Sequence record: NZ_CP121836.1
Length of the DNA: 61,154 nt
Direction: 5' to 3' (one strand)
Source: a plasmid
Positions 36,980 through 58,802 of this stretch are shown one piece after another. The stretch's first letter is position 1. Each line of letters starts with the position of its first letter. The notes beneath the pieces are model-generated. The model did no database searches, was not told the DNA's origin, and saw only the letters and a list, made by a program, of their open reading frames with translations. The translations under genes were made by a program, and so were the position numbers.

Positions 36980-38674
36980 ATGGCCAAGGGTAAAGAGTCG
37001 AGCGGAGAGAAAAAGCCCTATTACGAGCTGATTGCTGAAACACTTATCAAGCAGCTCGAAGAAGGCACCGCGCCGTGGCAAAAACCCTGGGAACCGGGCA
37101 CCTCTATGGTGCCCCATAACCCTGTGAGCGGTACAAAATACCGGGGCGGCAACGCCCTATGGTTGACCATGCAAGGTAGGTCAGATCCGCGCTGGATGAC
37201 CTACAAGCAGGCGCAAAGCGTCAATGCCCAGGTGAAACGAGGTGAAAGCGGTACGCTGATCCAGTATTTCAAGTTCCAAGACCAAGTGCCCAAGTTAGAC
37301 GCCAGCGGAAAACCTGAGATTGATAGCGACGGCAAAAAGAAGATGATCACCGTCCAACTGGATAAGCCTAAAGTCTTCTCGGCTGTTGTCTTCAACGGTG
37401 AGCAGATCCAAGGACTCCCCCCAATTGAGACAGAAAAGAAAGATCCCGCATGGAATAGACACGAACGGGCGGAAGCCATTCTAACCAATGCCGGTATCCC
37501 CATTTCACACGATCAAGCTGATAACGCTTTTTACCTCCCTGGCAAAGATGAAATCCACTTACCAGGGCGCGACCAGTTCGCCACCGCTGATAGGTACTAT
37601 GCAACAGCTCTGCATGAACTTGGCCACGCAACCGGCCATGCCAGCCGCTTGAATAGGGACTTATCCGGGCGCTTTGGCTCGGAGTCCTACGCAAAGGAAG
37701 AATTACGCGCTGAGATCGGTTCCCTGCTGATAGGGGATGAATTAGAGATCGGGCATGACCCTGGCCAACACGCTGCCTATGTCAAAAGCTGGGTAAAAGT
37801 GCTGAAGGAAGACCCCAAGGAAATTTTGCGAGCAGCTAGAGACGCTGAAGCGATCAAAGATTGGGTTATTGCCAGGGAACGGGAAAGCACCCTAACCGGC
37901 GACAACGCCAGACCTCCCCAAACGCAACAAGAAGATCAGGCGGTATCCCTGGCTGAAACCCGCAAGCTGATGGAGATTGTAGCGAACCAGAACAAAGGGG
38001 CCACCCTGGGGGATTCTGCTTCCCTCGCCCTGAAAGCATTGGGGCTCAACGAAACCAAACAGGTGATCGATGTTATCTCTACACTCAATGACCTGGTGAA
38101 ACACCCCGCCTTAGCTCAACAGGTGAAAAAGGCTGAAGCTGAGTTAGCACTATTGAAACCCCAGCACCAGGAGCAACACCAGGAGCCCAAGGCAACTGAA
38201 TCAGCGGCAACGGATAACAAGCCCCAGACTGAGGCTTTCAGTGAAACTCGCAAGCTGATGGAGATTGTAGCGAACCAGAACAAAGGGGCGGCCCTGGGGG
38301 AATCTGCGGCTGTTGCTTTGGAAGGATTGGCCCGTAATCAACCTGACCAGGCAAACGATGTTATCTCTAATTTGAGTGACCTACAGAAACACCCAGCATT
38401 AGCCAAGCAGATTGAGAAGGCCAAGGCCGAACAGGAAGCGATTAGAGCCACGCAAGGGGCTGACCAAGGGCAACGCATTGACCCTATCAGCAAATTGCCT
38501 CTGGCGCTTGCTGAGAAGCTATCTAGTCGGTTTGCGAATGAGGAAGATAGGGCAAAATTCCTTGAAAAGGTTCAAGCCCGACTTTCTGACGCTCCCCAGC
38601 CTGAAATCAAGATCCGGGAGGCCGTGGCAACAAGCAAAGAGCCCAAGGCACAAGCGGAAGATATGGAACGCTAA
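36980..38674 (+). CDS. ardC: Antirestriction protein ArdC (N-terminal ssDNA-binding ArdcN domain plus HExxH metalloprotease domain) with an extra C-terminal extension of about 270 aa containing a duplicated 65-aa module.
   Basis: PWQKPWEPGTSMVPHNPVSGTKYRGGNALWL (ArdcN) and ALHELGHATGH (metalloprotease). Repeats ETRKLMEIVANQNKGA(T/A)LG...KHPALA appear twice. Confidence 0.85.
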   Translation: MAKGKESSGEKKPYYELIAETLIKQLEEGTAPWQKPWEPGTSMVPHNPVSGTKYRGGNALWLTMQGRSDPRWMTYKQAQSVNAQVKRGESGTLIQYFKFQDQVPKLDASGKPEIDSDGKKKMITVQLDKPKVFSAVVFNGEQIQGLPPIETEKKDPAWNRHERAEAILTNAGIPISHDQADNAFYLPGKDEIHLPGRDQFATADRYYATALHELGHATGHASRLNRDLSGRFGSESYAKEELRAEIGSLLIGDELEIGHDPGQHAAYVKSWVKVLKEDPKEILRAARDAEAIKDWVIARERESTLTGDNARPPQTQQEDQAVSLAETRKLMEIVANQNKGATLGDSASLALKALGLNETKQVIDVISTLNDLVKHPALAQQVKKAEAELALLKPQHQEQHQEPKATESAATDNKPQTEAFSETRKLMEIVANQNKGAALGESAAVALEGLARNQPDQANDVISNLSDLQKHPALAKQIEKAKAEQEAIRATQGADQGQRIDPISKLPLALAEKLSSRFANEEDRAKFLEKVQARLSDAPQPEIKIREAVATSKEPKAQAEDMER

Positions 38675-38712: not shown

Positions 38713-39708
38713 TTATCTCTCGTCTTCGTCCCTCTCTGATTTTGCCTTGCCCTGCCCTACGTCCTGGGCTTTCTGTTGGGGCTTCATCTGCTCGGCCAGC
38801 TTGGCGGCTATCTCATGCCGTTCTGTTGCCAGTGGTGGCATAGACGAAACAAAGCCAACTATCTTGCTCGCCAGTTCCCTATCTTCGGCATCGCCTTGGT
38901 TCAGGTCTTTGGCCGCCGACAACCAGGATTTTCTAACCTCCTGCTGTCGCTGCTGGATCTTGTCTTCCCACGGTTTCGCCTTCGGCGGCTTGCCTGCCTG
39001 CTTATCTTTGAACTCGGAAACGATCTCTTTGACCTTAGCCTTATCGACCTCCGGGATCTCGCCCCGACTCCGAATATTCTTGATGACCTGGGAGACGGCT
39101 TTTTTAACTACGCCTCTCGGTGCCCTGGGTGTGGCTTCAGCATCAATGCCGCGCCGTTGAAGCTGCTCCGCGAACCCTTCGCGCCACTTCTGCGGATCAC
39201 CCTTCTTGATGTGGAGACGGCGGCCATCATGCCCTAGCGTTTTAATGGTCAGATGCACATGCGGGTGATCAACGTCAGTATGCAGGGCAAAAACATACTG
39301 GTAGTTATCCCCGAACTGCCCCTTAGCAAAATCCCGGGCCGAGTCTCGGACAGCTTTCGGATCAGTTCCCTTTGGCATGGACAGCACCAGGTTAGCGGTA
39401 TCCCTGGTATTGGCTCGGCGTTTCCCGCCGTCTTGCGTCCATTCCTTGTGAACCTCCTTTACCGCTGCCTTTCCCTTGATAACTTCTCCCCGCTCGTTCT
39501 CAAGCTCTAGCTTTCCGTTTCGGCTGATATAGTCCAGGTGAGCTTTTACGTGCTCGGCCCCTTTGGCCGCGCCAGATACCTTAACCATCACCTCGGAGGC
39601 TTTATCCGTGACTCGCTTAACTCGGCCTTTCAGATCGCCGGTCTTATTGGCCTTGGTCTTGACCTTCCCCTCTAGCAACCCGGCTAGAGTGTCATAGCCC
39701 TTATTCAT
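38713..39708 (-). CDS. mobA: Conjugative relaxase (MobA/VirD2-like, MOBQ/MOBP-type 3-His motif), 331 aa.
   Basis: His-triad motif FALHTDVDHPHVHLTIKTLG and an N-terminal Tyr (MNKGYDTL...). A mobC gene lies upstream and overlaps. Confidence 0.8.
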   Translation of the reverse strand: MNKGYDTLAGLLEGKVKTKANKTGDLKGRVKRVTDKASEVMVKVSGAAKGAEHVKAHLDYISRNGKLELENERGEVIKGKAAVKEVHKEWTQDGGKRRANTRDTANLVLSMPKGTDPKAVRDSARDFAKGQFGDNYQYVFALHTDVDHPHVHLTIKTLGHDGRRLHIKKGDPQKWREGFAEQLQRRGIDAEATPRAPRGVVKKAVSQVIKNIRSRGEIPEVDKAKVKEIVSEFKDKQAGKPPKAKPWEDKIQQRQQEVRKSWLSAAKDLNQGDAEDRELASKIVGFVSSMPPLATERHEIAAKLAEQMKPQQKAQDVGQGKAKSERDEDER

Positions 39709-40231
39709 CGATCCCCCACTTGTTTAAGTTGCGTTGAAGCAAACCGGCGACTTCCTCGCGGTGGGAATCGATCTTTTCAGATAGAGCTAGAACCGCCTGG
39801 CGGTTGAGCTTATCCGACTCTCTAAACTCGGTGTTCAGTACCTTGGCGATCTGGTTCAGGTTCCGGCCTATTGCCGCCAACTCCCTGTTTGACGTTCGCA
39901 GTGCTTGGATCTCGCTCTCGGTAAGAACCGGCTCGCGGTTCAGGTTGGCCATTGCAACAGCCGTTAGCCACGCCGTCCGACTGGTGAACCCTTCGGCCTT
40001 CGCTCGCTTCGTGATGCGCTTCATGTCTCTGGTGTTCAACCTGATATTGAGCTGATCCGTCTTGGTTTCCTTCAGCCCCTTATGGTCAAGGGCAACACTG
40101 CCCGCCGTAACCTTCTCGATCATTAGGCCCAGCATGTCGGATTCAGATACGCCCTGAGCGTGGCAGAAAGCCTGCCAGGCTTCTTTTTGCTCCTTAGTGA
40201 CGCGCCTTTCGATCCGATAGCTCTTTGCCAT
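39701..40231 (-). CDS. mobC: Relaxosome accessory protein MobC. The likely start MAKSYRIERR has a good AAGAGG ribosome-binding site.
   Basis: MobC family pattern ...NRELAAIGRNLNQIAKVLNTEFRESDKLNRQAVLALSEKID. Overlaps the relaxase start. Confidence 0.8.
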   Translation of the reverse strand: MAKSYRIERRVTKEQKEAWQAFCHAQGVSESDMLGLMIEKVTAGSVALDHKGLKETKTDQLNIRLNTRDMKRITKRAKAEGFTSRTAWLTAVAMANLNREPVLTESEIQALRTSNRELAAIGRNLNQIAKVLNTEFRESDKLNRQAVLALSEKIDSHREEVAGLLQRNLNKWGIDE

Positions 40232-40520
40232 TAACGACCTCTTTAAACATGGGGGGGCAGGGGGGGACAGGTGCAATTTTAGCACAAGCGGCGGCAGACG
40301 CTAGCAAATTGCGAATCCTGCCCTAGTTCTAACCCCCCCATGTTTTTTCGTACGTACGAAATTTTTCGGTTTTGCAGTGGCTTTTGGCCTTCGGCCAGGC
40401 TCACCAGGTCGCGGGGCTCCCTGGCTCGTCGGCTTCCCCTAACTTTGGATTGTGCAATCCAAAAGGCTGCCGCATAATGGTTATAGATTGTGCAATCCAA
40501 TACACGGAGCAGGGCACTAG
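40232..40520. promoter_or_regulatory. Putative oriT and divergent promoter region between mobC and the SprT-like gene. Contains poly-G/C tracts, the 18-bp palindrome TTTTCGTACGTACGAAAT and two TTGGATTGTGCAATCCAA-type operators.
   Basis: Position upstream of the mobC-mobA operon, with inverted repeats and G-rich tracts (GGGGGGGCAGGGGGGGACAGGTGCAATTTTAGCACAAGCGGCGGC). The nic site was not identified. Confidence 0.45.
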
Positions 40521-41252
40521 ATGAAACCAACATTGCAGGCTTACGACGAACTACAGCGGGCATATGATCACTTTAACAACGAGCTGTTTGATGGTGTCCT
40601 GCCCGATTGCCTGATCACCCTCCAACGAGAAAAACAAACCTATGGCTATTTCAGCCCGGAGAGGTTCGTTAACTCCCAAGGAACCCGGACGGACGAAATC
40701 GCCATGAATCCGGCTTACTTCGCCGTATGCCCCCCCGAAGAAATTATGCAAACGCTTTGCCACGAAATGTGCCACCTATGGCAGCACCATTTCGGCAAGC
40801 CTGGGCGGCGTGGCTATCACAACAAGGAATGGGCCGACTTCATGGAAGCTATCGGACTAATGCCAAGCAGCACCGGCGCACCTGGTGGAGCACGAACCGG
40901 CGACAAGATGGCGGATTATGCCATTGAGGGCGGGCGCTTCTTGGAAGCATATGAAAGCCTGATGACGGATGACTATCGGATCAGTTGGATGGATCGCTTC
41001 CCCAGTCGTGAAAAGCTGATGGCAGCAATCGCCAACGGCACCACCGATGAAATGGCCGGGGATCTTTCTATCATGGGGCTGGCTGGGATCTCTGTTGAGG
41101 ATGGAGAAATCACATTTGAGCCAGGGGAGCGCCCGAATAAGTCGAATCGGGAAAAATATACTTGCCCGCTCTGCCAGGCGAACATTTGGGGCAAGCCTGG
41201 CCTAAACGTCCTATGCGGAGACTGTGACACGGCTTTTGAGGCCGCTAACTGA
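40521..41252 (+). CDS. SprT-like zinc metalloprotease domain protein with a C-terminal zinc ribbon (243 aa). It is the first gene on the putative leading side of oriT.
   Basis: HExxH motif LCHEMCHLWQHH within a SprT-like fold pattern. C-terminal CPLCQ...CGDC. Confidence 0.7.
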   Translation: MKPTLQAYDELQRAYDHFNNELFDGVLPDCLITLQREKQTYGYFSPERFVNSQGTRTDEIAMNPAYFAVCPPEEIMQTLCHEMCHLWQHHFGKPGRRGYHNKEWADFMEAIGLMPSSTGAPGGARTGDKMADYAIEGGRFLEAYESLMTDDYRISWMDRFPSREKLMAAIANGTTDEMAGDLSIMGLAGISVEDGEITFEPGERPNKSNREKYTCPLCQANIWGKPGLNVLCGDCDTAFEAAN

Positions 41253-44054: not shown

Positions 44055-45122
44055 TTACTCTTTGGTGTCGGCTGCGTCTTTTTTCTGTTGGCGTTTCGCT
44101 GTTGGCTTAGTCAACTTGTCGATCTCCTGGTTGGCTGCCTTCAGGCTTGCGGTGAGCGTGGCCCGTTCTTCCTTCAGCGCCTCGATGCTGCCCTGGTTGT
44201 CCTGGTTGGCCTTGGCCAGCTTGCCGATCTCCTGGTTGGCTGCCTTCAGGCTTGCGGTGAGCGTGGCCCGTTCTTCCTTCAGCGCCTCGATGCTGCCCTG
44301 ATTGTCCTGGTTGGCCTTGGCCAGCTTGTCGATCTCCTGGTTGGCCGCCTTCAGGTTCGCGGTGAGCGTGGCCCGTTCTTCCTTCAGCGCCTCGATGCTG
44401 CCCTGGTTGTCCTGGTTGGCCTTGGCCAGCTTGTCGATCTCCTGGTTGGCTGCCTTCAGGTTCGCGGTGAGCGTGGCCCGTTCTTCCTTCAGCGCCTCGA
44501 TGCTGCCCTGGTTGTCCTGGTTGGCTTTGGCCAGCTTGTCGATCTCCTGGTTGGCCGCCTTCAGGTTCGCGGTGAGCGTGGCATTATCAGAGGTAAACGA
44601 CTCGATAGACTGGCGACAAACGGCGAGTTCCTGAGTCAGCCGCTCAACCTCTGAAGCCAAGCCGATTGCCTTCTGCTCGATAGTGATCTTTTCAGAGAGG
44701 GCGGCCCGAGTCTCGGCCTCCTTTTCGCTCACAGCAACACGACAGCGATCTAGTTCACTTTCCAGGCGGGCCACTTCGTCCAGGGCTTCATCACGCTCCT
44801 GATCTGCCATAGCCACATGCTCGGCGGCATGAGCTTTAACCGCTTCAATATCAGCAGCAGCCAATTTACTAGCCACCTGCCACAACTCGGCAGCCACACG
44901 ATCAAACCCGGCTTTCAGCTCCCCCGGCAGCTCAATTACAACAATGTCCGATTGCTCTTGAGAGGCCCGCCACTCACGCATAACCGGCGAGATATGAGAC
45001 AAAGAGCCGCCGCCCATGCGCTCGCGCACCTGCTCATTTGTTGGCTTTGCTACCCCTTCAGATCGAAGTGATTCAGCAGCTCGGACGATCTTTTCTTTCA
45101 TTTCAGGCTTAATCATGGTCAT
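44055..45122 (-). CDS. kfrA: KfrA-like DNA-binding coiled-coil protein with 35-aa tandem repeats (x4).
   Basis: N-terminal DNA-binding region MTMIKPEMKEKIVRAAESLRSEGVAKPTNEQVRERMGGGSLSHISPVMREWR, then a long heptad-rich helix. 105-bp tandem repeat at about 44100-44600. Confidence 0.8.
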   Translation of the reverse strand: MTMIKPEMKEKIVRAAESLRSEGVAKPTNEQVRERMGGGSLSHISPVMREWRASQEQSDIVVIELPGELKAGFDRVAAELWQVASKLAAADIEAVKAHAAEHVAMADQERDEALDEVARLESELDRCRVAVSEKEAETRAALSEKITIEQKAIGLASEVERLTQELAVCRQSIESFTSDNATLTANLKAANQEIDKLAKANQDNQGSIEALKEERATLTANLKAANQEIDKLAKANQDNQGSIEALKEERATLTANLKAANQEIDKLAKANQDNQGSIEALKEERATLTASLKAANQEIGKLAKANQDNQGSIEALKEERATLTASLKAANQEIDKLTKPTAKRQQKKDAADTKE

Positions 45123-45251
45123 GGCTTCGGCTCCCTGTATTGTATGTATTGTATTTTAATACAATGCATACAATACATACAATACAACGGAGTGAAAAAC
45201 GAACAAAAAAAACCCGGCGCAATGGCCGGGGTCGGTGACAGGGTAGCGGCT

Positions 45252-46319
45252 TCACCGCTCTAGATCGTCTTCATGGTTCCGGGGCTTGGGCTCTACAGCC
45301 TCGGCAATCTTCGGGGTTGGGTTATCCTTCCCGAGGGCCAGGTTATCAGCGAGTCGCGCCCTTACTGAGTCAACGAATCGCCCCCGTTCTGCATCGTCTT
45401 GAATTTTTACCTGGGCGAACTTATCCGCGACAGCGTACACGCTTGCGGCATCCTGGATCGCCTTATCGCCGGGATACTTCTTCAGAAGCTCTTGGTTTGA
45501 TAGCTGCCTGAAGTCTTCGGCCTTCGCCTGTTCTGGCGTTAACTCTTGCTTTCCTGGGCGTTCAGGCGCTTCAGCTCCGCTTTTGCCCATTCCCCAGCCT
45601 GCCGCATCTCTTGCCGCAGTGATTCGATCTCTGATGGCGTCAACTGATAATGCTTTTCTGAGGTGTCCGGCTTCGCCTTGGGTGAGTTGTTCGATTCCAT
45701 AGCCAAATGTAGACCTCCAATATTCATCCATTGCCTTGCCGTGCTTCTGCTCAATTGCTGCCAACATTTGAGGCTTAACAGGCATATCAACCGATCCGGG
45801 GTGAGCGGTCATTACAGCGGCCCCTAAGACCTTGCCGCCTCTGTTCTCAATGTAGCCCCTCAAGCTGGCCAGGGTGCCGCCCATCGCCAGCGTATCATCG
45901 ACAATCAGATAAGGCTGGTCACGCTCGACCTCCCCGACAAAAGCCGGGTTAATGGCCAGCCGATGATCAGCATTTGAGTTTGTACGACCGACCTTTTCCG
46001 CTTGGACAATGCTGTATTCAACCTCAAGCCCTAGACGGTCAGCGAGCACATGCGCGGCCATTAACGGGATCTTGTTGTTTCCCCCTGACTCAACAGCCAG
46101 GACAGGCACAACCTTGGGTTTCTGGTCGCCTATCATGGCCTTCACTGAATCGACCGTCTCCGGTTTCATCAAACGCCTGGCAATGGCCAAGGCGGCGGCA
46201 GGGTCGCCATGTTTGGCGGCTTCGTATTCAGGTTCTTTAGAGAGATCCTTTAGATCGCCGTTCCTCACTACTGCCGGGAAGTCTCCCCAGGGAGCACGTT
46301 CGGCCTTATGTTCGGTCAT
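45252..46319 (-). CDS. Phosphoribosyltransferase (type I PRTase fold) domain protein with a long Ala/Glu/Lys-rich C-terminal extension. Function unknown.
   Basis: PRPP-binding motif YLIVDDTLAMGGTLASL preceded by a Rossmann-like core. ATG at 46319 lies 4 nt after the upstream ORF stop. A terminator hairpin follows at about 45205-45235. Confidence 0.65.
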   Translation of the reverse strand: MTEHKAERAPWGDFPAVVRNGDLKDLSKEPEYEAAKHGDPAAALAIARRLMKPETVDSVKAMIGDQKPKVVPVLAVESGGNNKIPLMAAHVLADRLGLEVEYSIVQAEKVGRTNSNADHRLAINPAFVGEVERDQPYLIVDDTLAMGGTLASLRGYIENRGGKVLGAAVMTAHPGSVDMPVKPQMLAAIEQKHGKAMDEYWRSTFGYGIEQLTQGEAGHLRKALSVDAIRDRITAARDAAGWGMGKSGAEAPERPGKQELTPEQAKAEDFRQLSNQELLKKYPGDKAIQDAASVYAVADKFAQVKIQDDAERGRFVDSVRARLADNLALGKDNPTPKIAEAVEPKPRNHEDDLER

Positions 46320-46323
46320 GGTT

Positions 46324-46635
46324 TCAATCCCGGTCAGCGTCCCATATAGCCCCGAAACCTGCCAGGTGGGCCAAGATAGACCAAGCACCATAAGCAATAG
46401 GGCTAGGGTTGGTTTTGCTCACCCAACGTCTGAAGGTTCGGGTTCCCTTTCCGCTGCCCCTCTCACCAGGCAAACCAACTAGATCAGCAACATCAACACC
46501 ACTGAGCGGCTTACTAAGCCCTTTTCGTTGCCTAATCAGCTCCAACACCTCTTTGATTTCATCGACTGTTGGAGCCTGCCAATCTTCAGCAAACGGCCTA
46601 AGCGTTTCAGGTCTAATCATGCAATAAATCCTCAA
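46324..46635 (-). CDS. Hypothetical protein (103 aa), translationally coupled to the PRTase-domain gene.
   Basis: ORF only; no family recognised. Confidence 0.35.
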   Translation of the reverse strand: MRIYCMIRPETLRPFAEDWQAPTVDEIKEVLELIRQRKGLSKPLSGVDVADLVGLPGERGSGKGTRTFRRWVSKTNPSPIAYGAWSILAHLAGFGAIWDADRD

Positions 46636-46948
46636 ATAGCCCCGGACAATGCCGGGGCTTTTTCATCAATGGGAAACGGTCGCGGCGGCCTCCCGATACG
46701 CCTTCAGTTCAACCAAGAGCAAGCCAAGCTCCCGCATCTTCATGCGTGGCATATGAACGGGGCGGCGGGCCGTCAGAGCGTCGCCAATGTGTTTTGCAAG
46801 TGATACAATATCCGTATTCATCGCGTTTATCCTCAAATTGACCGGTGAAAGCCCCTGTGATTGGTTGCAGCCATACCAGGGGCACCATTTCTTTTTCTAC
46901 CTATGCACCTCCTTTAAGAGCCCCGGCCATCACCGGGGCTTTCTGTTG

Positions 46949-47374
46949 CTAGTCTATTGCGGCCAAGATGGCCTCTTTTTCGTCATGCTCACAAGCCCAA
47001 TCCCGCAAGCTGTGATACAGCCTTGAAAACCGCTCCTGGTCAGCGCCTTCCGTGTGAAATGACAGATGGCTATAGAGGTAGAGGCAAGCGGTAATCCCGG
47101 CAGCATCGGCGCTCATTTGGCCACTAAAGTAGTTCATAGCCTCGATGTTCAGCATTTCATCACGACGCCCAGGAGCCATATAAAAGCCGCCGTTCGACAG
47201 CTCCCACATAAGCCAATAAGCCCCGCGATACTCGCGGCAGAGCCCTTTCATTTGCTGGTAAAGCATCGACTCGAACACCACATAGAAGCGGCCTACATGG
47301 CGAGGCATTGCAGCCATACGGCGAGGGGTGGCGACCAGGGAGCAGATCAGGGGATTAAGTTCTGTTTGCATCAT
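46949..47374 (-). CDS. klcA: KlcA/ArdB-family antirestriction protein (141 aa).
   Basis: Family pattern ...YQQMKGLCREYRGAYWLMWELSNGGFYMAP...SADAAGITACLY..., comparable to RK2 KlcA. Confidence 0.85.
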   Translation of the reverse strand: MMQTELNPLICSLVATPRRMAAMPRHVGRFYVVFESMLYQQMKGLCREYRGAYWLMWELSNGGFYMAPGRRDEMLNIEAMNYFSGQMSADAAGITACLYLYSHLSFHTEGADQERFSRLYHSLRDWACEHDEKEAILAAID

Positions 47375-47484
47375 CGGAGTTCTCCGGTATTGACCGTGGC
47401 GGGTGCCCGGCCTTCTGAGATAAATAATAGGCCATTTTGACCTATTGTGTCAAGCGGGTACAATAAAAAATAGGCCAAATCGGC

Positions 47485-47763
47485 CTACTTTTTTTCGCTC
47501 CAACTGAGCCACATTTTATTCAGCTCCAGGCTGCGGGCTGGCCAATCTGGCAGATTCACCGCATGGGCGCGGTAGTTGATCCGAGTATTCAGAGTGCAAC
47601 GGGGAAAGGGGTTGGCCACCTTGCAGTAACGATAAAACAGACCGACGAGACGAGCACCGTAACGATCACGCTCCCAGGTCAAAACGTTGTGCATATGCTC
47701 GCGGCGTTCGCGTATCCATTCTCGATAGAGTTGGTGAAAGGTGCGGTTAGCTGTGTGGATCAT
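47485..47763 (-). CDS. Hypothetical protein (92 aa). It shares its 45-bp 5' leader and upstream operator with klcA.
   Basis: ORF plus the duplicated upstream region (47761-47805 compared with 47375-47419). Confidence 0.4.
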   Translation of the reverse strand: MIHTANRTFHQLYREWIRERREHMHNVLTWERDRYGARLVGLFYRYCKVANPFPRCTLNTRINYRAHAVNLPDWPARSLELNKMWLSWSEKK

Positions 47764-47940
47764 CGGAGTTCTCCGGTATTGACCGTGGCGGGTGCCCGGT
47801 CTTCTTGATTAAGATTATAGGCCAAAATGGCCTACCTTGGCAATAAAAAGCGCGCTCTACGTTAAAAAAATCACGTAGTCACGGGGGATTGCTGCCAAGA
47901 TTTCGCATAGCGTCGCCTGATTTCGTACGTACGAAATGGG

Positions 47941-48420
47941 CCACCTGGTCGAGCTGCTGCCGGTGCCTGGTGAGTTGGCCACCTGGTTGATTTCCTTCTG
48001 GCGTCCAGATCTGAACTTGGCCACCTGGTCGAGCTGCTGCCGGTGCCTGGTGAGTTGGCCACCTGGTTGATTTCCTTCTGGCGTCCAGATCTGAACTTGG
48101 CTACCTGGTCGAACTGCTGCCGGTGCCTGGTGAGTTGGCCACCTGGTTGAGCTGCTGCCGGTGCCTGGTGAGTTGGCCACCTGGTTGATTTCCTTCTGGC
48201 GTCCAGATCTGAACTTGGCCACCTGGTCGAGCTGCTGCCGGTGCCTGGTGAGTTGGCCACCTGGTTGATTTCCTTCTGGCGTCCAGATCTGAACTTGGCC
48301 ACCTGGTCGAGCTGCTGCCGGTGCCTGGTGAGTTGGCCACCTGGTTGATTTCCTTCTGGCGTCCAGATCTGAACTTGGCTACCTGGTCGAACTGCTGCCG
48401 GTGCCTGGCAAGTTGATCTA
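47941..48420. repeat. Iteron array 1: about 5.5 direct copies of an 80-bp unit, each containing two GGCCACCTGGTYGA sub-repeats. Putative oriV.
   Basis: Tandem units ccacctggtcgagctgctgccggtgcctggtgagttggccacctggttgatttccttctggcgtccagatctgaacttgg. Lies adjacent to repA. Confidence 0.8.
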
Positions 48421-48550
48421 AAGGTGGAAGATTAAGCGGGTAGTGATAGACTGAGATCCAGCATGGCTATACGCCTGCTAACCCCTCAAAAGAAAGCAGC
48501 CTCTAGGGCTGCCATCAGTTACAAAATCTCACTCACTTTGAAATAGCCAT

Positions 48551-49930: not shown

Positions 49931-50102
49931 TATTGATGCACCCCTAACTTGCCAAGGGGTACACTCCCGCTATAATAGGAGGTGCAATCCTTAGCCTTAT
50001 CCAGGCTCCGGCACCTCGGTTGCCGCCAAGCTCACCGAAAGTGCCACCAAATTTAGACCCCGGTAAACCGCCCGCCAAGTTGGTTTCCGGGGTTTTCCCT
50101 TT

Positions 50103-50414
50103 CTATGCCGCTAACGGCCTCACCTGTCCTAGACGACTACGCAACGCCTCGTCATTCTCTGCGTCCCATAGATCCACGGCACTTTGCAGCCCTAGCCAGT
50201 ATTCCGGCTCTGTTCGTGTAGCTGCTGCCAGGATAAACGCGCTATCGACTGTAACAGGCACTCGCCCGCGACATAGCTGATTAACGTGCTTTCTTGTCCA
50301 TCCGGTATGGGTGGCCAAGTCTGTTTGAGTGATTCCGTACGGGGCCAAGAATTCCCTTTCAAGTATCTGGCCAGGTGTGGCCGGTCGTGATTGGTTCATG
50401 TAATAAGCCCTCAT
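50103..50414 (-). CDS. higA: HigA-family XRE-type HTH antitoxin-like protein (103 aa). No adjacent toxin gene.
   Basis: ...GQILEREFLAPYGITQTDLATHTGWTRKHVNQLCRGRVPVTVDSAFILAAATRTEPEYWLGLQ, the HigA/VapI pattern. Confidence 0.7.
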   Translation of the reverse strand: MRAYYMNQSRPATPGQILEREFLAPYGITQTDLATHTGWTRKHVNQLCRGRVPVTVDSAFILAAATRTEPEYWLGLQSAVDLWDAENDEALRSRLGQVRPLAA

Positions 50415-50459
50415 CAGAATGATGTGTTTTGAAGTGTAACCTAGTTGGTAAACTTCAAC

Positions 50460-50870
50460 AATAGATCAGGCCCGCCCTGTAATAGGGGAGGGACTTGTCT
50501 CACAACATTGAGGCGATCACCTGGTTGAGCTGCTGCCGGTGCCTGGTGAGTTGGCCACCTGGTCGAGCTGCCGCCTGTAATAGGGGAGGGACTTGTCTCA
50601 CCGCATCGAGGCGATCACCTGGTTGAGCTGCTGCCGGTGCCTGGTGCGTTGGCCACCTGGTCGAGCTGCCGCCTGTAATAGGGGAGGGACTTGTCTCACC
50701 GCATCGAGGCGATCACCTGGTTGAGCTGCTGCCGGTGCCTGGTGAGTTGGCCACCTGGTCGAGCTGCCGCCTGTAATAGGGGGGGACTTGTCTCACCGCA
50801 TCGAGGCGATCACCTGGTTGAGCTGTTGATTTACTTCTGGCGTCCAGATCTGAACTTAGCAACAGCCATC
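50460..50870. repeat. Iteron array 2: 4+ copies of a roughly 97-bp unit. It shares the ACCTGGTTGAGCTGCTGCCGGTGCCTGGTGAGTTGGCCACCTGGTCGAGCTG core with array 1 and adds a TAATAGGGGAGGGACTTGTCTCAC motif.
   Basis: Direct repeats seen at about 50460, 50570, 50665 and 50760. The extra motif also occurs at the repA 3' end (about 48595-48620). Confidence 0.7.
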
Positions 50871-50988
50871 ACCAACACAACATCTTGTGCGCCGGCAGCT
50901 GATCGCGGCCACCATATCTAGTGTTTCAATTTTGGATTGCGCAATCCAAAATAGGCGTAAAAATAACGATGGTTTTCTTTACATGATT

Positions 50989-53900
50989 GGGGTTCTAGGG
51001 ATTTTCCGTCCAAAAACGACAAAGTGCTCTGGAGGCCGCGCCGTCCGTGGCCTCCAGAGGGGTATTACTTTTCGCTGACGGGTAAATATCCCTCGATTGA
51101 GCGCATAAGCTCCTCCAGATCTGGCAATTTTTCGCTCAATTCGAAGTGGTAAGTCCCCTTGAGGTTAATGTTGTGCCAGGCCACAGGGGATGCCTGTTTG
51201 ACGATATCTATTCTCTTGGTATCTCCTTGGTATTCGAAGCTGGTCAACAGCTGGCTGAGTATCCTGGAGTTGAAGTAAACGATGGCATTGGTGACCAGGC
51301 GAGCGCACTCATTCCATAGCTGGATTTCTTCGTCTGAACTGCCCCGGAACTGATCCCCATTGACGCTGCTCACGGCCCGACGCAGTTGGTGATAGGCCTC
51401 TCCCCGGTTCAGCGCGCGCTGAACATAGTTTCTTAAACTGGCATCATCGATGTAGCACAGTAGATAATTCGCTTTCACCAGGCGATTGTATTCCGTCAGG
51501 GCTTCCAGCAGCGGGTGATTGCGCTTGTACTCCGAGAGCTTTCTCACCAAGGTGGCTTGCGTTGTTTTCCGCTGCTTAAGTGATACTGCAATCCGTTGGA
51601 TGGTATCCCAGTGCTGCGCAATACGATGGGTATTGATTGGCTTTTTTAAGCACAGCTGAATTCGGTGTTCTTTGTCTTCCTTGACATCAAACATGTCATT
51701 GATCACTTTGCCAACCTGGGCATAGCGTGGGGCAAACTGGTATCCGAACAGATCCAGTAACGCGAAGTTCACATGGTTCACCCCATGGGTATCGGTTGAG
51801 AGCACATCCGGAATGATGTCTGACGTATTGCTCATCAACAAATCAAAGATGTAGTGCGATTCATGTTCGTTGGCGCCGATCACTCTGGCGTTGATCGCAG
51901 CGTGATTGGCGATCAAGGTCATGGCAGAAACACCTTTTTGAGTGCCAAAGTACTTCGACGAATAACGGGTTTTGAAGGTCTCGCGCCGGGCTTCGAACTT
52001 TTGACCATCGGCACTGGCGTGGATCACATCTTCCTGGATGTTGTAGTACCGGAAGATGGGTAGCTTGGCTGTCGCGTTATTGATGTTGTCGTTAGCAGCA
52101 TTCAATGTTTCCAGGCGAAGATAGTTCGCCTGGATAGTGCTGAGCTGATCATAGGTACGATCAGAGATCTGTGCCATGCCGTAAATGCCTTGATTGGTTG
52201 CATTGCCGACCAGAATTGCCAACAGGTCATATTCATGGGAACGGCTTCTGGATTGGGAACCCAGCACATGAGCGAAGCAGTCAATGAAACCGGTGTCACG
52301 ATCAACCATGCGCAGTACATCCGCAATCCCCGTTGTGGGAATTTGCTGGAAGAAGGGATTGTTGACCAGATGATGTTTGCTGGCCGAAGGCAGGCGCCAG
52401 AAGCGTTTACCCTGCGGATTACGCAAGATGATATTCCGGTTGTCTTCCTGTTCAAGATATTCGCCGACTTCGTACAAACGGGTATCCAATTCCATGGCCA
52501 TCTGTTTGATCAGCTTTTCAGGCTCCTCCGCTAATTTTGTAAAATGGCTCTGTTGAAGCAGCGTATATTTGTTTTTTCGCCAATGTTCCCCGTCGATCAG
52601 GTCGGCGTCGAGTGCCCGGTATTTAGTGATATCAGGCAGCGTCAGCTGGCCATTCAGGCGATCAGGAATCTGTTGATAGAGGAACCACTCATAACGATCG
52701 ATCAGGATATTCCCTTCACCATCCAGCAGGAATTCACGTGATTTTTTGGAAAGGAGTCTGGTGTCGGCAGTTTGCAACTGAGCGTCCTGGCCGTTGAGTT
52801 CGTTTTGTGTTTTCGCCAAGGCGGCCGCTAAGTGCTGGGTGCCGTCGCAGCCTTCGAAGCGCAGACATAGGAACAACTCTCGCAGCAAACCTTTCCGCAG
52901 ACTTTCTTTCTCGTCGCAGTACTGCCACATGGCTTCATCGACCGATCGTCGCTGCTCGTTCAGGAAGAGACATACAGATTCCAGATCCCTTTTGGTCAGC
53001 AGGCTCAGTGCTTGCTGTCTTACTGTTGCAAACGGTAGTTGCAGATCAATGCTGTCATCAATGAACAGGTGCAGTACTTCAGCTGCCTTGCTGACATTTT
53101 TAGCTGCTTTTTGCCAATCCTTAAACACCGCTTCCTGCGCATAATCCTTTGCCTTCTGTTTGGTCTGTCTGACATGATGCACAAAGCCATCGGCAATACG
53201 TTCCAGCGCTTGCTGCCATCGCGTTTGAAGATAGCACAATAAATACAGCCATTGGCTGCCTACGGTTTGACGTTTCAGTTTGGCACCGTAGTAGTCGACT
53301 TTCTCTGCCAGGTGTTGCAGATTTTTCTGCGACAGTGATAGCGTGCTCAACAGCAGATCCACTTCCGGCATCCAATGCTGGATATGGCGATAGACAATCA
53401 GTTCTTTCTCCAACTCGGTTCCGGTGAAGTTACGAGCCGATTGTCGCAACTGTCGGAACGGCAGTGGACCTGTGCCGTTCACGAGCTCCGCCAGTGCTTG
53501 CTTAAGACCGCGTGACATTGCACGCTCAAGGTGCGCGGCCATGTGTTCCTGTTCGTCTCCCACCACCTGACTGATGATCTTTTGCAGCGTGCTGTAGGCA
53601 GGGATTGCGATCTTCTGCCCCGAACAATATTCAATGGCCGCATCGAAGAGGTGCCTAGGCGCTGTCCAGGCTCTGGCTTGCTGGGATAAGTAATCTCTCA
53701 ACGCCGCTCCATGGTCTTTGACATTCCAGCGCTGGTAGTTGCAGAGCTGGAAAACACGTTGGTAAATCCGTTCGTTCTCTTTTGGCGTGAGATTAAAGGG
53801 TCTACAGCCTGGGCCTGGTAGAACGGTTTGATAAACGTATTTGAGGTCCTGCTTGATCTGATGAAAGCCGGGATTCAGCACCACCGGCTTGGCTTTGAAA

Positions 53901-54226
53901 TAGCCCAGCAGTACCACCAGCATGTAACGCTGGCCCCGATGACGGAGGCTTTTAGCGATCGCCAGTTCCTTATCGTTCAGCGAGAAAAAGAAGCGTTGGT
54001 CGGCGGAGGTGAAAGCGGGGGGGTCCATATAACTCATCTTGTTCTGCCTCGGACAAGATTTGGACACGTTCTTCGAATGCCATGGATTTAGCCCAAAAAG
54101 ACTAAATCTTACTCAAACAGAGCCCAAATAGGGATCTCGAAAAAAAGTAATACCCCTCTGGAGGCCACAGACGGCGGGGCCTCCAGAGCACTTTGTCGTT
54201 TTTGGACGGAAAATCCCTAGAACCCC
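50989..54226 (-). mobile_element. IS1071-like Tn3-family insertion sequence (3238 bp): tnpA only, flanked by inverted repeats of about 88 bp starting GGGGTTCTAGGGATTTTCCGTCC. No direct target duplication.
   Basis: Left end 50989-51076 and right end 54139-54226 are near-identical inverted repeats. The 5-bp flanks are TGATT and TTGGT, not identical. Confidence 0.8.
51065..54067 (-). CDS. tnpA: Tn3-family transposase TnpA (1000 aa).
   Basis: DUF4158-like N-terminus (RFFFSLNDKELAIAKSLRHRGQRYMLVVLLGYFKAKP) and a DDE_Tnp_Tn3 C-terminal region. Confidence 0.9.
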   Translation of the reverse strand: MSKSCPRQNKMSYMDPPAFTSADQRFFFSLNDKELAIAKSLRHRGQRYMLVVLLGYFKAKPVVLNPGFHQIKQDLKYVYQTVLPGPGCRPFNLTPKENERIYQRVFQLCNYQRWNVKDHGAALRDYLSQQARAWTAPRHLFDAAIEYCSGQKIAIPAYSTLQKIISQVVGDEQEHMAAHLERAMSRGLKQALAELVNGTGPLPFRQLRQSARNFTGTELEKELIVYRHIQHWMPEVDLLLSTLSLSQKNLQHLAEKVDYYGAKLKRQTVGSQWLYLLCYLQTRWQQALERIADGFVHHVRQTKQKAKDYAQEAVFKDWQKAAKNVSKAAEVLHLFIDDSIDLQLPFATVRQQALSLLTKRDLESVCLFLNEQRRSVDEAMWQYCDEKESLRKGLLRELFLCLRFEGCDGTQHLAAALAKTQNELNGQDAQLQTADTRLLSKKSREFLLDGEGNILIDRYEWFLYQQIPDRLNGQLTLPDITKYRALDADLIDGEHWRKNKYTLLQQSHFTKLAEEPEKLIKQMAMELDTRLYEVGEYLEQEDNRNIILRNPQGKRFWRLPSASKHHLVNNPFFQQIPTTGIADVLRMVDRDTGFIDCFAHVLGSQSRSRSHEYDLLAILVGNATNQGIYGMAQISDRTYDQLSTIQANYLRLETLNAANDNINNATAKLPIFRYYNIQEDVIHASADGQKFEARRETFKTRYSSKYFGTQKGVSAMTLIANHAAINARVIGANEHESHYIFDLLMSNTSDIIPDVLSTDTHGVNHVNFALLDLFGYQFAPRYAQVGKVINDMFDVKEDKEHRIQLCLKKPINTHRIAQHWDTIQRIAVSLKQRKTTQATLVRKLSEYKRNHPLLEALTEYNRLVKANYLLCYIDDASLRNYVQRALNRGEAYHQLRRAVSSVNGDQFRGSSDEEIQLWNECARLVTNAIVYFNSRILSQLLTSFEYQGDTKRIDIVKQASPVAWHNINLKGTYHFELSEKLPDLEELMRSIEGYLPVSEK

Positions 54227-54464
54227 TTGGTGTGGGGTTTAGCGGGCTTTGCCCGCCTTTCCCCCCTGCCGCGCAGCGGTGGGGCGGTGTGTAGCCTAGC
54301 GCAGCGAATAGACCAGCTATCCGGCCTCTGGCCGGGCATATTGGGCAAGGGCAGCAGCGCCCCACAAGGGCGCTGATAACCGCGCCTAGTGGATTATTCT
54401 TAGATAATCATGGATGGATTTTTCCAACACCCCACCAGCTCCCCCCCTTCCTGGGTTTGCAGGT

Positions 54465-54560
54465 TTAGGGGCGTGACAGTTACGCCGGGGGTTCGTGACA
54501 GTTACGCCGGGGGGGGCGTGACAGTTACGCCGGGGGCGTGACAGTTGCGCCGGGGGACGG
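54465..54560. repeat. Four direct repeats of a 22-bp unit (GCGTGACAGTTACGCCGGGGG) immediately upstream of the truncated MobV relaxase gene.
   Basis: Copies at about 54470, 54492, 54517 and 54538; the last has T to G. Confidence 0.7.
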
Positions 54561-54911
54561 ATGGCGTTTGCGATCATGAGGGCGAAGAAGCTCAACAGCA
54601 TGGGCACGGTGGCGGCTGCGTTGCAGCACTGCTACCGCGACCGCGAGACGCCGAACGCCGATCAGGAGCGCACACCGGACAACGATCACCTGGCGGCCAG
54701 ATCGACCGATGAGGCGATGGGCAAGCTCAGGGAGCGGTTGCCGGAGAAGCGGCGCAAGGATGCGGTGCTGGCGGTCGAATACGTGATGAGCGCCTCGCCG
54801 GAGTGGTGGCAGACCGCAAGCGCCGACCAGCAGCGGGAGTTCTTCAAGCGATCGACCGAGTGGCTGGCCGCATGCCGAAAATTCAGATGCTCGGCGACGG
54901 CGATGAACTGA
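54561..54911 (+). pseudogene. MobV/Pre-family relaxase N-terminal fragment (the so-called truncated virD2 of floR contexts).
   Basis: MAFAIMRAKKLNSMGTVAAALQHCYRDRETPNADQERTPDN resembles the MobM-type N-terminus. The ORF ends after 116 aa. Confidence 0.55.
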
Positions 54912-55012
54912 ACAAGGGAAATGAGCGGTATCCTGCCAGACAGGATACCGACATTCACGAGGTTTCGATGGTTAGTGCGCCGCATCGGAGCGGGCCTGCT
55001 ACCAGTCGTCGG

Positions 55013-56227
55013 TTAGACGACTGGCGACTTCTCGGTGGCAGCCCCACGGAGCCGAAGGAGCACCAGCCCCAACGAAACCAGTACCGCCATCGCCGTGGCG
55101 TAACAGATCACGGGCCACGCTGTGTCACCGTTTAAAAGTGCCACCGCCAATGTCCCGACAATGCTGACTATCAGGCTTTGAACGCAGAAGTAGAACGCGA
55201 CCGCTGATCCCGCGATGTCGTCGAACTCTGCCAAAGCGCCGTTCGCGGTAACGGACACCGTGAAGACAATACCGACCGCGACAACCCACATCGGTAGGAT
55301 GAAGGTGAGGAATGACGGCGAGCCGTAAAGTTCGCCGATCCCCAACAGGACCGCTCCGCAAACAAGCAACGCCATCCCACGCGCCACGCATCCTGCGATG
55401 CCCCATCTGGCGACAAAGGACTTCGCGAAACGGGTTGTCACGATCATTACAAGCGCGACAGTGGCGAAGGCAAAGCTGAATCCGATCTCGGAATATTCCG
55501 CTTGGCCTATGAGCACACGGGGAGCCGTCGAGAAGAAGACGAAGTAGGTGCCCATACCGGCGCTAAAGCCGACAGTGTAAACCCAAAAAGCCGGACTCGC
55601 GAAGATCGGCAAGACAGATCGGCGCGTCTTGACTTGATCCAGAGGGCGGGTTTCGTGCCACCTGAAACCCGCATTTAGGAGTGCGAGCATCGCCAGTATA
55701 GCCAAAGTAATGAATATCGCCTGCCATCCCAAGAACTCGCCGATCAATACTCCGGCGATAGGGCCGAGCGCAGGCACGAACGCCAGCATCGAACTGAAAA
55801 GGCCGTAGATGACGACACCCTCAGGACGGTTGGCATAAACGTCGCGAACCGTCGCGAACGTCGCCACCAGCATGGCCGACGCGCCCACTGCTTGAAGTAG
55901 ACGGAAAGCGACAAAGGCCGGTGCAGTTGAAGACCAAGCTGCTCCCAGAGACGCAATGACGAAAGCCGTTGCGCCCGCAAGTAGAATTGGCCGTCGCCCG
56001 ATTCTGTCTGAGAGCGGACCAAAAATCACCTGGCCCACGCCGAGCATCACCATATAGAGGCTCAACGTGAGTTGGATCATAGCGGGCGTCGTGTTCAGGA
56101 TGCCGGGCATCGCTGGAACGACAGGGAGATAAATATCCATCGCCAGTGAAGCGAGGATGTCGAAAGGAGCCATCAGCAGCAGTGCTGCCGGCAGCGTATA
56201 GGCCCACGCGGGGCGTGTGGTGGTCAT
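55013..56227 (-). CDS. floR: Florfenicol/chloramphenicol efflux MFS transporter FloR (404 aa).
   Basis: Full-length FloR sequence MTTTRPAWAYTLPAALLLMAPFDILASLAMDIYLPVVPAMPGILNTTPAMIQLTLSLYMVMLGVGQ...LRLRGAATEKSPVV. Confidence 0.97.
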   Translation of the reverse strand: MTTTRPAWAYTLPAALLLMAPFDILASLAMDIYLPVVPAMPGILNTTPAMIQLTLSLYMVMLGVGQVIFGPLSDRIGRRPILLAGATAFVIASLGAAWSSTAPAFVAFRLLQAVGASAMLVATFATVRDVYANRPEGVVIYGLFSSMLAFVPALGPIAGVLIGEFLGWQAIFITLAILAMLALLNAGFRWHETRPLDQVKTRRSVLPIFASPAFWVYTVGFSAGMGTYFVFFSTAPRVLIGQAEYSEIGFSFAFATVALVMIVTTRFAKSFVARWGIAGCVARGMALLVCGAVLLGIGELYGSPSFLTFILPMWVVAVGIVFTVSVTANGALAEFDDIAGSAVAFYFCVQSLIVSIVGTLAVALLNGDTAWPVICYATAMAVLVSLGLVLLRLRGAATEKSPVV

Positions 56228-56420
56228 GACGAATCAACCCTCGATTAAGGAATACCGGGCGACGTCTGCTCGTCAGCAATCAGATGAGACTAGCCTTACA
56301 GAGCGCCGCAACAACAATACTGGTTGTTGCGGCTTACTTGTCTGCTGACTTGGAATTTCCCATCTGATTACTCCACGCTTACGAATATGAATTGCTACAT
56401 TTTATCCGATTATCTTTGGT

Positions 56421-56862
56421 TCATCGCGGCTTTCCGGGGAAGGCCGCCTTGATTTTCAGGAAAAAGTATTCTGAGTCCCGAAATCCATAGGCCATGCGTT
56501 TGATCACCTTGATTCGATTATTCACTCCCTCCAGCAGGCTGGTGTGCATTGGAAAACGGGAGCTGGCCAAGATGCCTCGGATGTAACGTCGAAGGTTTTT
56601 GGCAAAATTCTGCAGGGGCGCCAGACCACTTTCTCTGGCTTGGCGCATCCAGGCCCGCCATCGTTGCCAACCTTCCCGGATGCTGGGGGCGTACCAGATT
56701 TCCTTCAGTGCATCTTTGAGGACATAGGCTGTGGCCAAGGGCTTATTGGCTTCCAGTAGCTCTTGTAATTGCACCGCTTGTCCTTCCTTTAGATTTTCTC
56801 GATTGCGCAGTAGCAGCCAACGCGCTTGCTTGACCACCTTGCGAGCTGGCTTGTCATGCTGT
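56421..56862 (-). pseudogene. ISL3-family transposase C-terminal fragment, truncated by IS6100.
   Basis: ...ARWLLLRNRENL... and ...GVNNRIKVIKRMAYGFRDSEYFFLKIKAAF match ISL3-family C-terminal motifs. Confidence 0.65.
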
Positions 56863-57726: not shown

Positions 57727-57824
57727 CACACGAGTATTGAGCATAGTCGAGATTGGTGCAGATCACTTCTGATATTGAACTGTCAGGAGCTGGCTGCACA
57801 ACAGCCATTACGCCCAATCAACTG

Positions 57825-57849
57825 GTGCAGTCGTCTTCTGAAAATGACA
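57825..57849. repeat. IRt, the 25-bp inverted repeat of the Tn402-family tni end, with the In4-type 123-bp end next to IS6100. Outer end at 57849, facing the cassette array.
   Basis: The plus strand reads GTGCAGTCGTCTTCTGAAAATGACA, separated from IS6100 by 98 bp. Confidence 0.85.
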
Positions 57850-58083: not shown

Positions 58084-58212
58084 CGACCGCAGTCATTTCT
58101 GTACCTAAACAGTCCTGCGAATATGTGAGTTTTGACCTAATGAGCCACAAAAACTCATTTTCGCCCACGATAATTTTTCTACTTCCTTTCTTTGGAATGC
58201 TCATTTCAATAT

Positions 58213-58777: not shown

Positions 58778-58802
58778 CCTGGGTTAACGCTTGAGTTAGA
58801 CA

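Follow-up and report, generated by a model that had tools for sequence, protein, structure and literature searches.

The window analysed here is a stretch of 61,154 nucleotides of plasmid DNA (sequence record NZ_CP121836.1), and our subject is a block of five open reading frames (ORFs) on its minus strand between positions 45252 and 47763, the last of which encodes KfrC, a protein with a phosphoribosyltransferase (PRT, or PRTase) domain. Comparison of positions 45000-48000 with the IncU plasmids pRA3 (NC_010919), pFBAOT6 and many of their relatives gave 99.9% nucleotide identity (3001 bases), with the same gene order and matching annotation, identifying the block with near certainty as the first half of the IncU (RA3) stability or central-control module: orf02, klcA, orf04, korC and kfrC. 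In RA3 this module consists of ten genes, all transcribed one way (PMC7414963, PMC9455977). The genes of the block, their regulation and the PRT domain have already been published for RA3, and the block is not a new module; as a discovery it is of modest weight, and its chief value lies in pointing to the function of the PRT head of KfrC.

The original prediction, made from the letters of the DNA, had described the PRTase as uncharacterised and the ORF upstream of it as unknown. The former is in fact KfrC of RA3, for which the PRT domain, an active-site mutant and the partners KfrA, KorB, VirD4 and VirB4 were published in 2021 (PMC8124265), and the latter is the global repressor KorC (PMC7414963), which is 41-47% identical over 94-97% of its length to genes annotated korC in IncP-1-type plasmids (tblastn) and has no match among Pfam and NCBIfam models. 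As to the gene calls, orf02 and klcA had been delimited exactly. The small ORF of about 50 codons is present, at the coordinates in Table 1 and not at 46823-46676; the 103-codon ORF at 46635-46324 is open from a TTG, but the start in use is the ATG that yields 98 amino acids (aa); and the PRTase gene does begin 4 nt after this ORF but encodes 355 aa rather than 356. At that junction the korC stop codon (46326-46324) is followed by four nucleotides (aacc) and the kfrC ATG. RefSeq calls kfrC of pRA3 as 379 aa from an upstream start overlapping korC (locus L001, 6253-7392), and of the 448-aa kfrC ORF that is intact in pBS228 it annotates just 174 aa at the C terminus (locus L007, 6492-7016).

Purifying selection acts on korC and on both parts of kfrC: across three IncU variants, synonymous and nonsynonymous codon differences number 10-22 and 2-6 in korC, 28-32 and 3-4 in the kfrC head, and 17-18 and 4-6 in the kfrC tail. 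Against related IncU plasmids, orf02, which is almost confined to IncU-derived DNA, shows 2-3 synonymous and 0 nonsynonymous differences. For orf04, lying between genes under strong purifying selection, the counts are 0 synonymous versus 4-5 nonsynonymous (compared with pMBUI3 and pRHBSTW-00821_4); its frame is open in all four IncU plasmids compared, and in pMBUI7 a stretch of 15 nt is duplicated in tandem without loss of frame. The korCp promoter, weak and constitutive, has been placed inside the putative orf04 (PMC7414963). Judging from the substitutions, the coding status of orf04 is doubtful, and it may be a promoter-bearing spacer instead of a gene.

Table 1. Coordinates of the genes and other features discussed (positions in the window; strand left blank for palindromes).
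Feature	Position	Strand	Remarks
orf02	47763-47485	-	92 aa; opens the RA3 stability module
klcA	47374-46949	-	141 aa; ArdB/KlcA-family antirestriction protein; PF03230, E 9.7e-27; annotated klcA in pRA3 and pMBUI3
GC-rich hairpin 3' of klcA (klcA terminator)	46916-46945	-	RA3 klcAt construct at matching coordinates (PMC7414963)
orf04	46821-46666	-	51 aa from ATG; 56 aa from TTG at 46836
GC-rich hairpin between orf04 and korC	46633-46662	-	from the sequence
korC	46620-46324	-	98 aa from ATG (start in GenBank and published primers); 103-aa form from TTG at 46635
kfrC	46319-45252	-	355 aa including head and tail
kfrC head	46319-45591	-	residues 1-243; predicted ComFC-like type I PRTase module, polyvalent-protein clade
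kfrC tail	45590-45252	-	residues 244-355; predicted disordered linker and helical bundle, IncU-lineage adaptor; includes stop codon
kfrA	44055-45122	-	DNA-binding coiled-coil partner of KfrC; PF11740, E 4.1e-20; PMC7783346
KorC operator in orf02p	47818-47834		TAGGCCATTTTGGCCTA (minus-strand reading); overlaps -10 region of orf02p
KorC operator in klcAp	47428-47444		TTGACA, then TAGGTCAAAATGGCCTA, then TATTAT
Third operator-like palindrome	47471-47487		TAGGCCGATTTGGCCTA; overlaps orf02 stop codon
Fourth palindrome	18927-18943		TAGGCCATTTTGGCCTA, perfect; 28 kb away, far end of transfer module
orf02 leader and start codon	47751-47805	-	one copy of 55-nt repeat; Shine-Dalgarno GGAGAA, ATG
klcA leader and start codon	47362-47416	-	second copy of 55-nt repeat
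oriT nick motif	40315-40321	+	ATCCTG/C; predicted nick (slash) between 40320 and 40321
mpR	40521-41252	+	SprT-like; sole orientation exception right of oriT
mobC	39701-40231	-	left of oriT
Relaxase gene nic	38713-39708	-	left of oriT
TraC-like conjugative primase	33776-36841	+	DUF5710, Toprim region, LPD7
VirD4 coupling protein	31838-33763	+	published binding partner of KfrC tail (PMC8124265)

Regulation of the block follows the known KorC circuit. Four 17-bp palindromes of the form TAGGNCN5GNCCTA occur in the window, where 0.03 would be expected by chance, and the leaders of orf02 and klcA are the two copies of a 55-nt direct repeat with 95% identity. The proposal that klcA and orf02 are co-regulated through a common operator and leader was borne out by these elements, which are the KorC operators of two duplicated promoters. 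In RA3, a duplication gave rise to the strong promoters orf02p and klcAp; KorC, which binds 17-bp palindromes there and at a site in the transfer module, represses both, and KorB additionally represses orf02p; the global control by KorC extends to the modules for replication, stability and transfer; and korC-kfrC is a bicistronic operon, served by the weak promoter in orf04 and by read-through from the upstream orf02p and klcAp (PMC7414963, PMC9455977). KorC also controls orf033p and orf034p (PMC7414963), and the fourth palindrome, 28 kb away, is presumably where these two promoters are controlled. We regard the identity of the block and its regulation as practically settled. By the logic of kil/kor circuits, orf02p and klcAp would fire fully in a fresh recipient devoid of KorC, producing a burst of Orf02, KlcA, KorC and KfrC in the new cell that KorC would then shut down.

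KfrC is built of two parts, and an alignment of 30 homologues indicated that the head (residues 1-240) is strongly conserved, with unrelated tails behind it. The motif for binding phosphoribosyl pyrophosphate (PRPP) and the long charged C-terminal tail noticed earlier are both real: YLIVDDTLAMGGTL occupies residues 137-150, and the 112-aa tail contains 19 K+R and 22 D+E. The protein matches PF00156 with 30.6 bits (gathering score 26.3), and the head has the hallmarks of type I PRT enzymes, namely a PRPP loop (hydrophobic stretch, DD, then T-x-G-G-T), a pyrophosphate (PPi) loop, a flexible loop and a Rossmann-like core. In the AlphaFold2 model (mean predicted local distance difference test score, pLDDT, 81.8) the PRT core is flanked by N- and C-terminal helices of its own, the linker at residues 243-258 is disordered (pLDDT <50) and helices follow in the tail at residues 262-328. 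Among 143 representatives with pairwise identity of 50% or less, D141, D142, T149 and P85 are conserved in 100%, N82 and E216 in 99%, E77 and R120 in 97% and R112 in 76%; the helical extensions have conserved positions as well (Y32, K36, T213, E216 and R230). The type I PRTase fold originally proposed is upheld by the PF00156 match, the model and its structural neighbours, and the modelled head belongs to the ComFC-like kind of type I PRTase, its PRPP and PPi loops both intact. It is under selection and appears ligand-competent; for a putative PRPP-dependent transferase activity the evidence is indirect, namely that the DDT141-143AAA substitution removes the toxicity of overproduced KfrC (PMC8124265).

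RefSeq names KfrC 'phosphoribosyltransferase', and this name, together with a PF00156 score above the gathering threshold, would fit an accessory metabolic gene for a routine nucleotide-salvage enzyme (APRT, HGPRT, XPRT or OPRT). The NCBIfam equivalogs for these four enzymes reached at best 22.9 bits against a cut-off of 188, with the likeness confined to about 40 residues around the PRPP loop, and a profile search of PDB sequences with KfrC found only the PRPP loop of APRTs (E about 1e-3). Because all salvage models fall far below their cut-offs, the head is not a salvage enzyme; its conserved helical extensions are its own, and it occurs in plasmids, in conjugative elements and within polyvalent proteins, a distribution specific to mobile elements, so that we give the salvage explanation scarcely any probability. 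Two other comparisons led nowhere: the XopC/Rsp1239 type III effector family was dropped as too weak a match (E 0.002; 16 bits, with the cut-off at 1000), and Foldseek against viral predicted structures returned just generic giant-virus and phage PRTases at a template modelling (TM) score of about 0.25.

A full HMMER scan of 1.84 billion representatives gave 1976 matches at E<=1e-3, 353 of them at E<=1e-30. In the best 150, the whole head module (residues 5-240) lies inside proteins that are longer than 600 aa in 90 cases and longer than 1500 aa in 55, and the polyvalent-protein matches span KfrC residues 5-240 with 40-70% identity. Pfam annotation of 34 large members revealed a conjugative primase type in about 14 (PriCT_2, Toprim_3, PRT and LPD7), and other architectures with InPase and LPD38, with ART-PolyVal, MuF_C, LPD1/5/23/39, Fic and GGDEF, or with helicase and methylase domains. 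Such domains are hallmarks of polyvalent proteins (Iyer, Burroughs, Anand, de Souza and Aravind 2017, PMC5512222), giants whose delivery into new hosts by plasmids and phages is predicted, and the same study, the one paper on this domain class, described a PRTase clade in invasive elements, with solo versions and a ComFC-like arginine, calling its role "enigmatic"; KfrC is not mentioned there. By sequence, the KfrC head is assigned to this mobile-element-specific clade of polyvalent, invasive-element proteins. Three members with other architectures combine the head with a PutA/RelB-type ribbon-helix-helix domain (P0061), place it between Fic and AAA domains (P0121) or carry an unassigned 215-aa N-terminal extension before it (P0106).

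A link to a second gene of the window came from the TraC-like primase, which aligns with one large member (P0123) over a Toprim block (E 2e-19) and an LPD7 block (E 1e-14); in P0123 a KfrC-type head stands exactly between these blocks. Relatives of the window primase (P0123 and P0134) hold the KfrC head internally, a fusion or fission relationship between two RA3 genes that lie 8 kb apart. The original prediction had seen no described anti-defence or establishment function in a PRTase-fold protein with antirestriction neighbours; computational work of 2017, however, had already reported a PRTase domain in proteins of the invasion stage (PMC5512222). The literature searched contained no paper that ties the KfrC experiments to the polyvalent-protein PRTase clade, including its insertion into TraC-type primases, and to the ComFC fold; the KfrC papers are silent on polyvalent proteins, and PMC8124265 on translocation too, and literature searches turned up no experiments with a PRTase in anti-defence or establishment by plasmids.

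Published experiments on RA3 describe what KfrC does in cells (all PMC8124265). The PRT type I domain was noted as V56-H173; the head alone could not be cloned under tacp; overproduction of full-length KfrC slows growth and condenses nucleoids in a host-dependent manner, and the DDT141-143AAA substitution abolishes the toxicity. Dimerisation and the binding of KorB and VirD4 were mapped to the tail (244-355), VirB4 and KfrA are partners as well, and deletion of kfrC changes stability and transfer, again depending on the host. The tail was stated to have no homologues, whereas about 20 IncU-like solo proteins in the current database carry an RA3-type tail with 40-65% identity; the idea that this tail is itself a polyvalent-protein domain was ruled out, as it was found in IncU-like solo proteins only. 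In KfrA, the coiled-coil tail contains five near-identical tandem repeats of about 35 aa each (…ATLTANLKAANQEIDKLAKANQDNQGSIEALKEER…).

The toxicity raises the possibility that KfrC is a toxin-like or kil-type protein whose head depletes or diverts PRPP or nucleotides in the manner of the PRTase toxin ShosT and is kept in check by the plasmid, serving addiction or control of host growth, with korC in an antitoxin-like position; a helix-turn-helix (HTH) gene followed 4 nt later by the gene of a toxic enzyme does resemble a type II toxin-antitoxin layout, and both the failure to clone the head under tacp and the DDT-dependent toxicity of the whole protein fit. Other evidence points away from it: the pairing with KorC is not conserved, korCp is constitutive and not autoregulated, KorC's documented targets are other promoters (PMC7414963), and kfrC deletions are viable, unlike the loss of an addiction module (PMC8124265). 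ShosT is a structurally weaker match to the head than ordinary salvage enzymes, and a PADLOC scan of KfrC, KorC, orf04 and orf02 gave no matches. The type II toxin-antitoxin reading of korC-kfrC was rejected on the non-conserved co-occurrence and the reported constitutive korCp, and we consider the broader toxin explanation improbable.

The close spacing of korC and kfrC had also suggested an undescribed two-component anti-defence module, which would join an unknown small protein to a new PRTase by translational coupling. The gap of 4 nt does exist, the plasmid carries klcA, ArdC (36980-38674) and SprT-like genes, the block is on the predicted leading side, and supplementary file 3 of Samuel et al. 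(2024) includes KfrC/TraN-like and KorC families. Both proteins are, however, named and experimentally studied (PMC7414963, PMC8124265), the upstream one being a DNA-binding repressor with its own operators, and the gene directly upstream of the PRT gene differs in every other lineage examined: it is kfrB in IncP-1 plasmids, an LPD7/HTH gene in Vibrio and unrelated ORFs in two other elements. The two-component idea was dropped when BLASTP of KorC against the upstream ORFs of two other elements showed no similarity, and when the genes preceding the PRT gene in other elements, together with RK2-type KfrB, were compared with NCBIfam models, nothing matched and no conserved partner emerged. Considering the differing upstream genes, and that korC is kept beside a mere kfrC stub in about 800 Klebsiella plasmids (hundreds of them KPC plasmids), the pair is not a conserved module but an operon of convenience in IncU, and the anti-defence version of the idea has very little probability left.

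That Klebsiella fragment, orf02-klcA-orf04-korC (46324-47763), occurs at 95-99% identity in roughly 800 plasmids with kfrC truncated; in K. pneumoniae pCT77-KPC (locus L008, 3858-5297) it adjoins ISKpn27-blaKPC-2, with a kfrC stub of approximately residues 6-79. The practical reach of the finding lies here, as the korC-klcA part, with its truncated kfrC, moves beside blaKPC-2 in hundreds of Klebsiella plasmids.

The PRT gene was also viewed among its neighbours in other elements. In IncP-1alpha plasmids 53 bp separate the end of kfrC from traM, and the gene is situated at 1.85-3.2 kb from the nick; a Shewanella IncP-like element has the same layout. A Vibrio mediterranei element carries the PRT gene directly after mobC and an LPD7/HTH gene, with a Toprim primase, ArdC, topoisomerase III and a coupling protein nearby, and in another element the gene is surrounded by those for an orphan C5 methylase, ArdC and a topoisomerase.

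In the window, the position of the block depends on the polarity of transfer. The intergenic oriT carries the MOBP nick motif AATCCTG/CC on its plus strand, at a distance of 50 nt upstream from the promoter elements of mobC, and the genes mobC and nic are on the 5' side of the motif; the search pattern YATCCTGY misses it, the base before ATCCTG being A, and the nick was located by reading the sequence. A conserved nick site at the same position relative to mobC has been reported (PMC4175270). In the IncP-1alpha plasmid pBS228 the strand with CTTCACCTATCCTG/CCCGG runs 3' into the leader operon traK-traL-traM and then kfrC, with traJ and traI on the 5' side. The window oriT has this RP4-type topology of pBS228, so that the plus strand would be the one transferred and the DNA above 40321 would enter first; by this analogy the block probably lies on the side of oriT that enters first. 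The leading-region placement first proposed thus survives the polarity test, on a motif-based rather than a mapped nick. The genes would enter in the order mpR, orf11, korB, incC, korA, kfrA, kfrC, korC, orf04, klcA, orf02. It had been claimed that all genes opposite the relaxase point toward oriT, which is correct for orf11 through orf02 and fails for mpR on the plus strand. As all entering genes except mpR are on the minus strand, the transferred strand would serve as their template, an orientation reported for leading-region genes (Samuel et al. 2024, PMC11541004). A table in supplementary file 3 of that study lists leading-region family 224, annotated TraN-like/KfrC, with about 226 members, and family 304, annotated KorC, with 169 members.

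KfrC is neither a housekeeping salvage enzyme nor a partner of KorC. The reading that we find most likely, and hold tentatively, is that the head is an invasion-stage enzyme or ligand-binding module using PRPP or a nucleotide, which during transfer and establishment would cooperate with the coupling protein and a TraC-type primase, its target being the transferred strand or else the cell's pool of nucleotides or PRPP; the tail dimerises and docks KfrC to KorB and VirD4 (PMC8124265). In favour of this reading are the polyvalent fusions, the primase link, the neighbours traM, mobC with an LPD7 gene, ArdC, topoisomerase III and orphan methylase, and the binding of the tail to VirD4 and VirB4 (PMC8124265). 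Taken as a whole, identity, regulation, polarity and invasion-stage function together, this explanation is in our estimate moderately probable.

The authors of the RA3 work favour a donor-side switch or scaffold, in which KfrC, mainly a structural adaptor, would with KfrA link the partition complex (KorB) to the coupling protein and the head would be a non-catalytic PRPP or nucleotide sensor like PurR, PyrR or possibly ComFC, biasing vertical versus horizontal spread of the plasmid. The interactions of KfrC with KfrA, KorB, VirD4 and VirB4 and the host-dependent effects of kfrC deletion on stability and transfer (PMC8124265) speak for this, as do heads fused to varied DNA-binding or adaptor tails (the IncP KfrC domain, the ribbon-helix-helix domain and the RA3 tail). 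The same head, however, occurs in phage-type polyvalent proteins (MuF_C, InPase, LPD38), which have no partition system to switch; the toxicity of overexpressed KfrC and the condensation of nucleoids, both dependent on the DDT motif (PMC8124265), argue for an activity directed at the host, and the inorganic pyrophosphatase domain that recurs alongside suggests a PPi-releasing reaction. We regard the switch as possible, if rather unlikely.

Several observations weigh against an invasion-stage function. Enzymatic activity, substrate and DNA binding are putative throughout the head clade. korCp is constitutive, hence KfrC is also present in established cells, and RA3 without kfrC still transfers between laboratory strains, with no reduction in laboratory matings, and the deletion in P. 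putida gives increased transfer and decreased stability (PMC8124265), results that suit a donor-side switch or a maintenance role at least equally. The tail is mildly acidic (pI, the isoelectric point, 5.25), unlike the positively charged C-terminal signals of classical VirB/D4 substrates; one Vibrio element has its PRT gene behind the relaxase-side operon and not on the leading side; and the polarity is a prediction from the conserved nick motif and the RP4 analogy.

A bolder form of the invasion-stage reading would make the KfrC head a new class of establishment or anti-defence effector, ComFC-like and using PRPP or nucleotides, which is delivered into the target cell or first expressed there; we consider this doubtful. 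If it were true, the effector would act with the incoming-strand primase (TraC/LPD7) on single-stranded DNA (ssDNA), or on the recipient's PRPP or nucleotide pool, and RA3 would have split the module off as a protein of its own whose tail docks to VirD4 for export or for positioning at the channel. The question that results is what role a PRPP-binding module plays for DNA arriving in a new cell. Few domains of polyvalent proteins have a solo version that is tractable and genetically characterised; RA3 KfrC, for which mutants, partners and a toxic phenotype exist, is such a case and offers an experimental handle on a domain class of about two thousand representative proteins of plasmids and phages.

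Elsewhere in the window, the accessory region at 50000-61154 contains resistance elements occurring in thousands of plasmids, with matches including an IS3000-family Tn3-like transposase, cmlA5, sul1, aadA1 and floR-type sequences. Between orf02p and repB, positions 47853-48495 comprise seven copies of an 80-bp repeat unit (DR2/iteron region); judged from an 80-bp length difference in BLAST matches, the copy number is one unit apart from that of pRA3.

Among known systems, the closest is the RA3 (IncU/IncP-6) stability module described by Kulinska, Ludwiczak, Lewicka, Mitura and others of the Jagura-Burdzy laboratory, which has the same DNA, genes, order, operators and duplicated promoters as the window block; there is no material difference inside the block, the window plasmid being bigger (61 kb) and carrying resistance transposons elsewhere. 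KfrC of IncP-1alpha plasmids (Upf54.4/TraN; RK2, RP4, pBS228) has an N-terminal 240-aa PRT head homologous to that of RA3 KfrC (52-58% identity), and its gene likewise points toward oriT on the leading side with kfrA as a neighbour, whereas the upstream gene is kfrB in place of korC. At its C terminus it carries NF042916 'IncP_KfrC_dom' (152 positions; 215.5 bits in P0030), to which window KfrC has no match, and no interaction of IncP KfrC with the IncP coupling protein TraG was found (PMC8124265). IncP-1beta KfrC has that domain only, without a PRT head, and KfrC of R751 shares nothing with the RA3 protein (PMC8124265). The name KfrC thus covers proteins that share only the head (RK2) or nothing (R751) with RA3 KfrC.

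Leading-region anti-defence islands (PMC11541004) resemble the window block in several respects, as the block is placed, by prediction, on the leading side at 4.9-7.4 kb from the nick, has a uniform orientation with the transferred strand as predicted template, and includes a KlcA/ArdB antirestriction gene. Unlike those islands, the region consists mostly of genes for partition and regulation (korA, incC, korB, kfrA, korC) and not of ssb, psiB or ardA, and expression of the block is under a kor-type repressor circuit; a single-strand promoter of the Frpo type was not seen, no search aimed at it having been made.

The top structural neighbour of the KfrC head is ComFC (ComF; H. pylori, 7p0h, PMC9005727), with which it shares the PRT fold and an intact PRPP loop. 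ComFC acts in a biology of ssDNA entering the cell, its catalysis being likewise putative (PMC9005727). The two proteins are 11% identical in sequence, ComFC has an N-terminal four-cysteine zinc finger and KfrC has no cysteine at all, and the helical N- and C-extensions are KfrC's own; the likeness, seen on a model, is one of fold. With the polyvalent PRTase clade (PMC5512222) the correspondence is more extensive, since the head matches internal domains of proteins of 600-4400 aa over its whole 240 aa, and the DD motif and loop arginine are kept in the KfrC clade, with R120 or R112 as the candidate counterpart of the arginine. RA3 KfrC differs from these proteins in being a solo head joined to an adaptor tail whose partners have been experimentally mapped.

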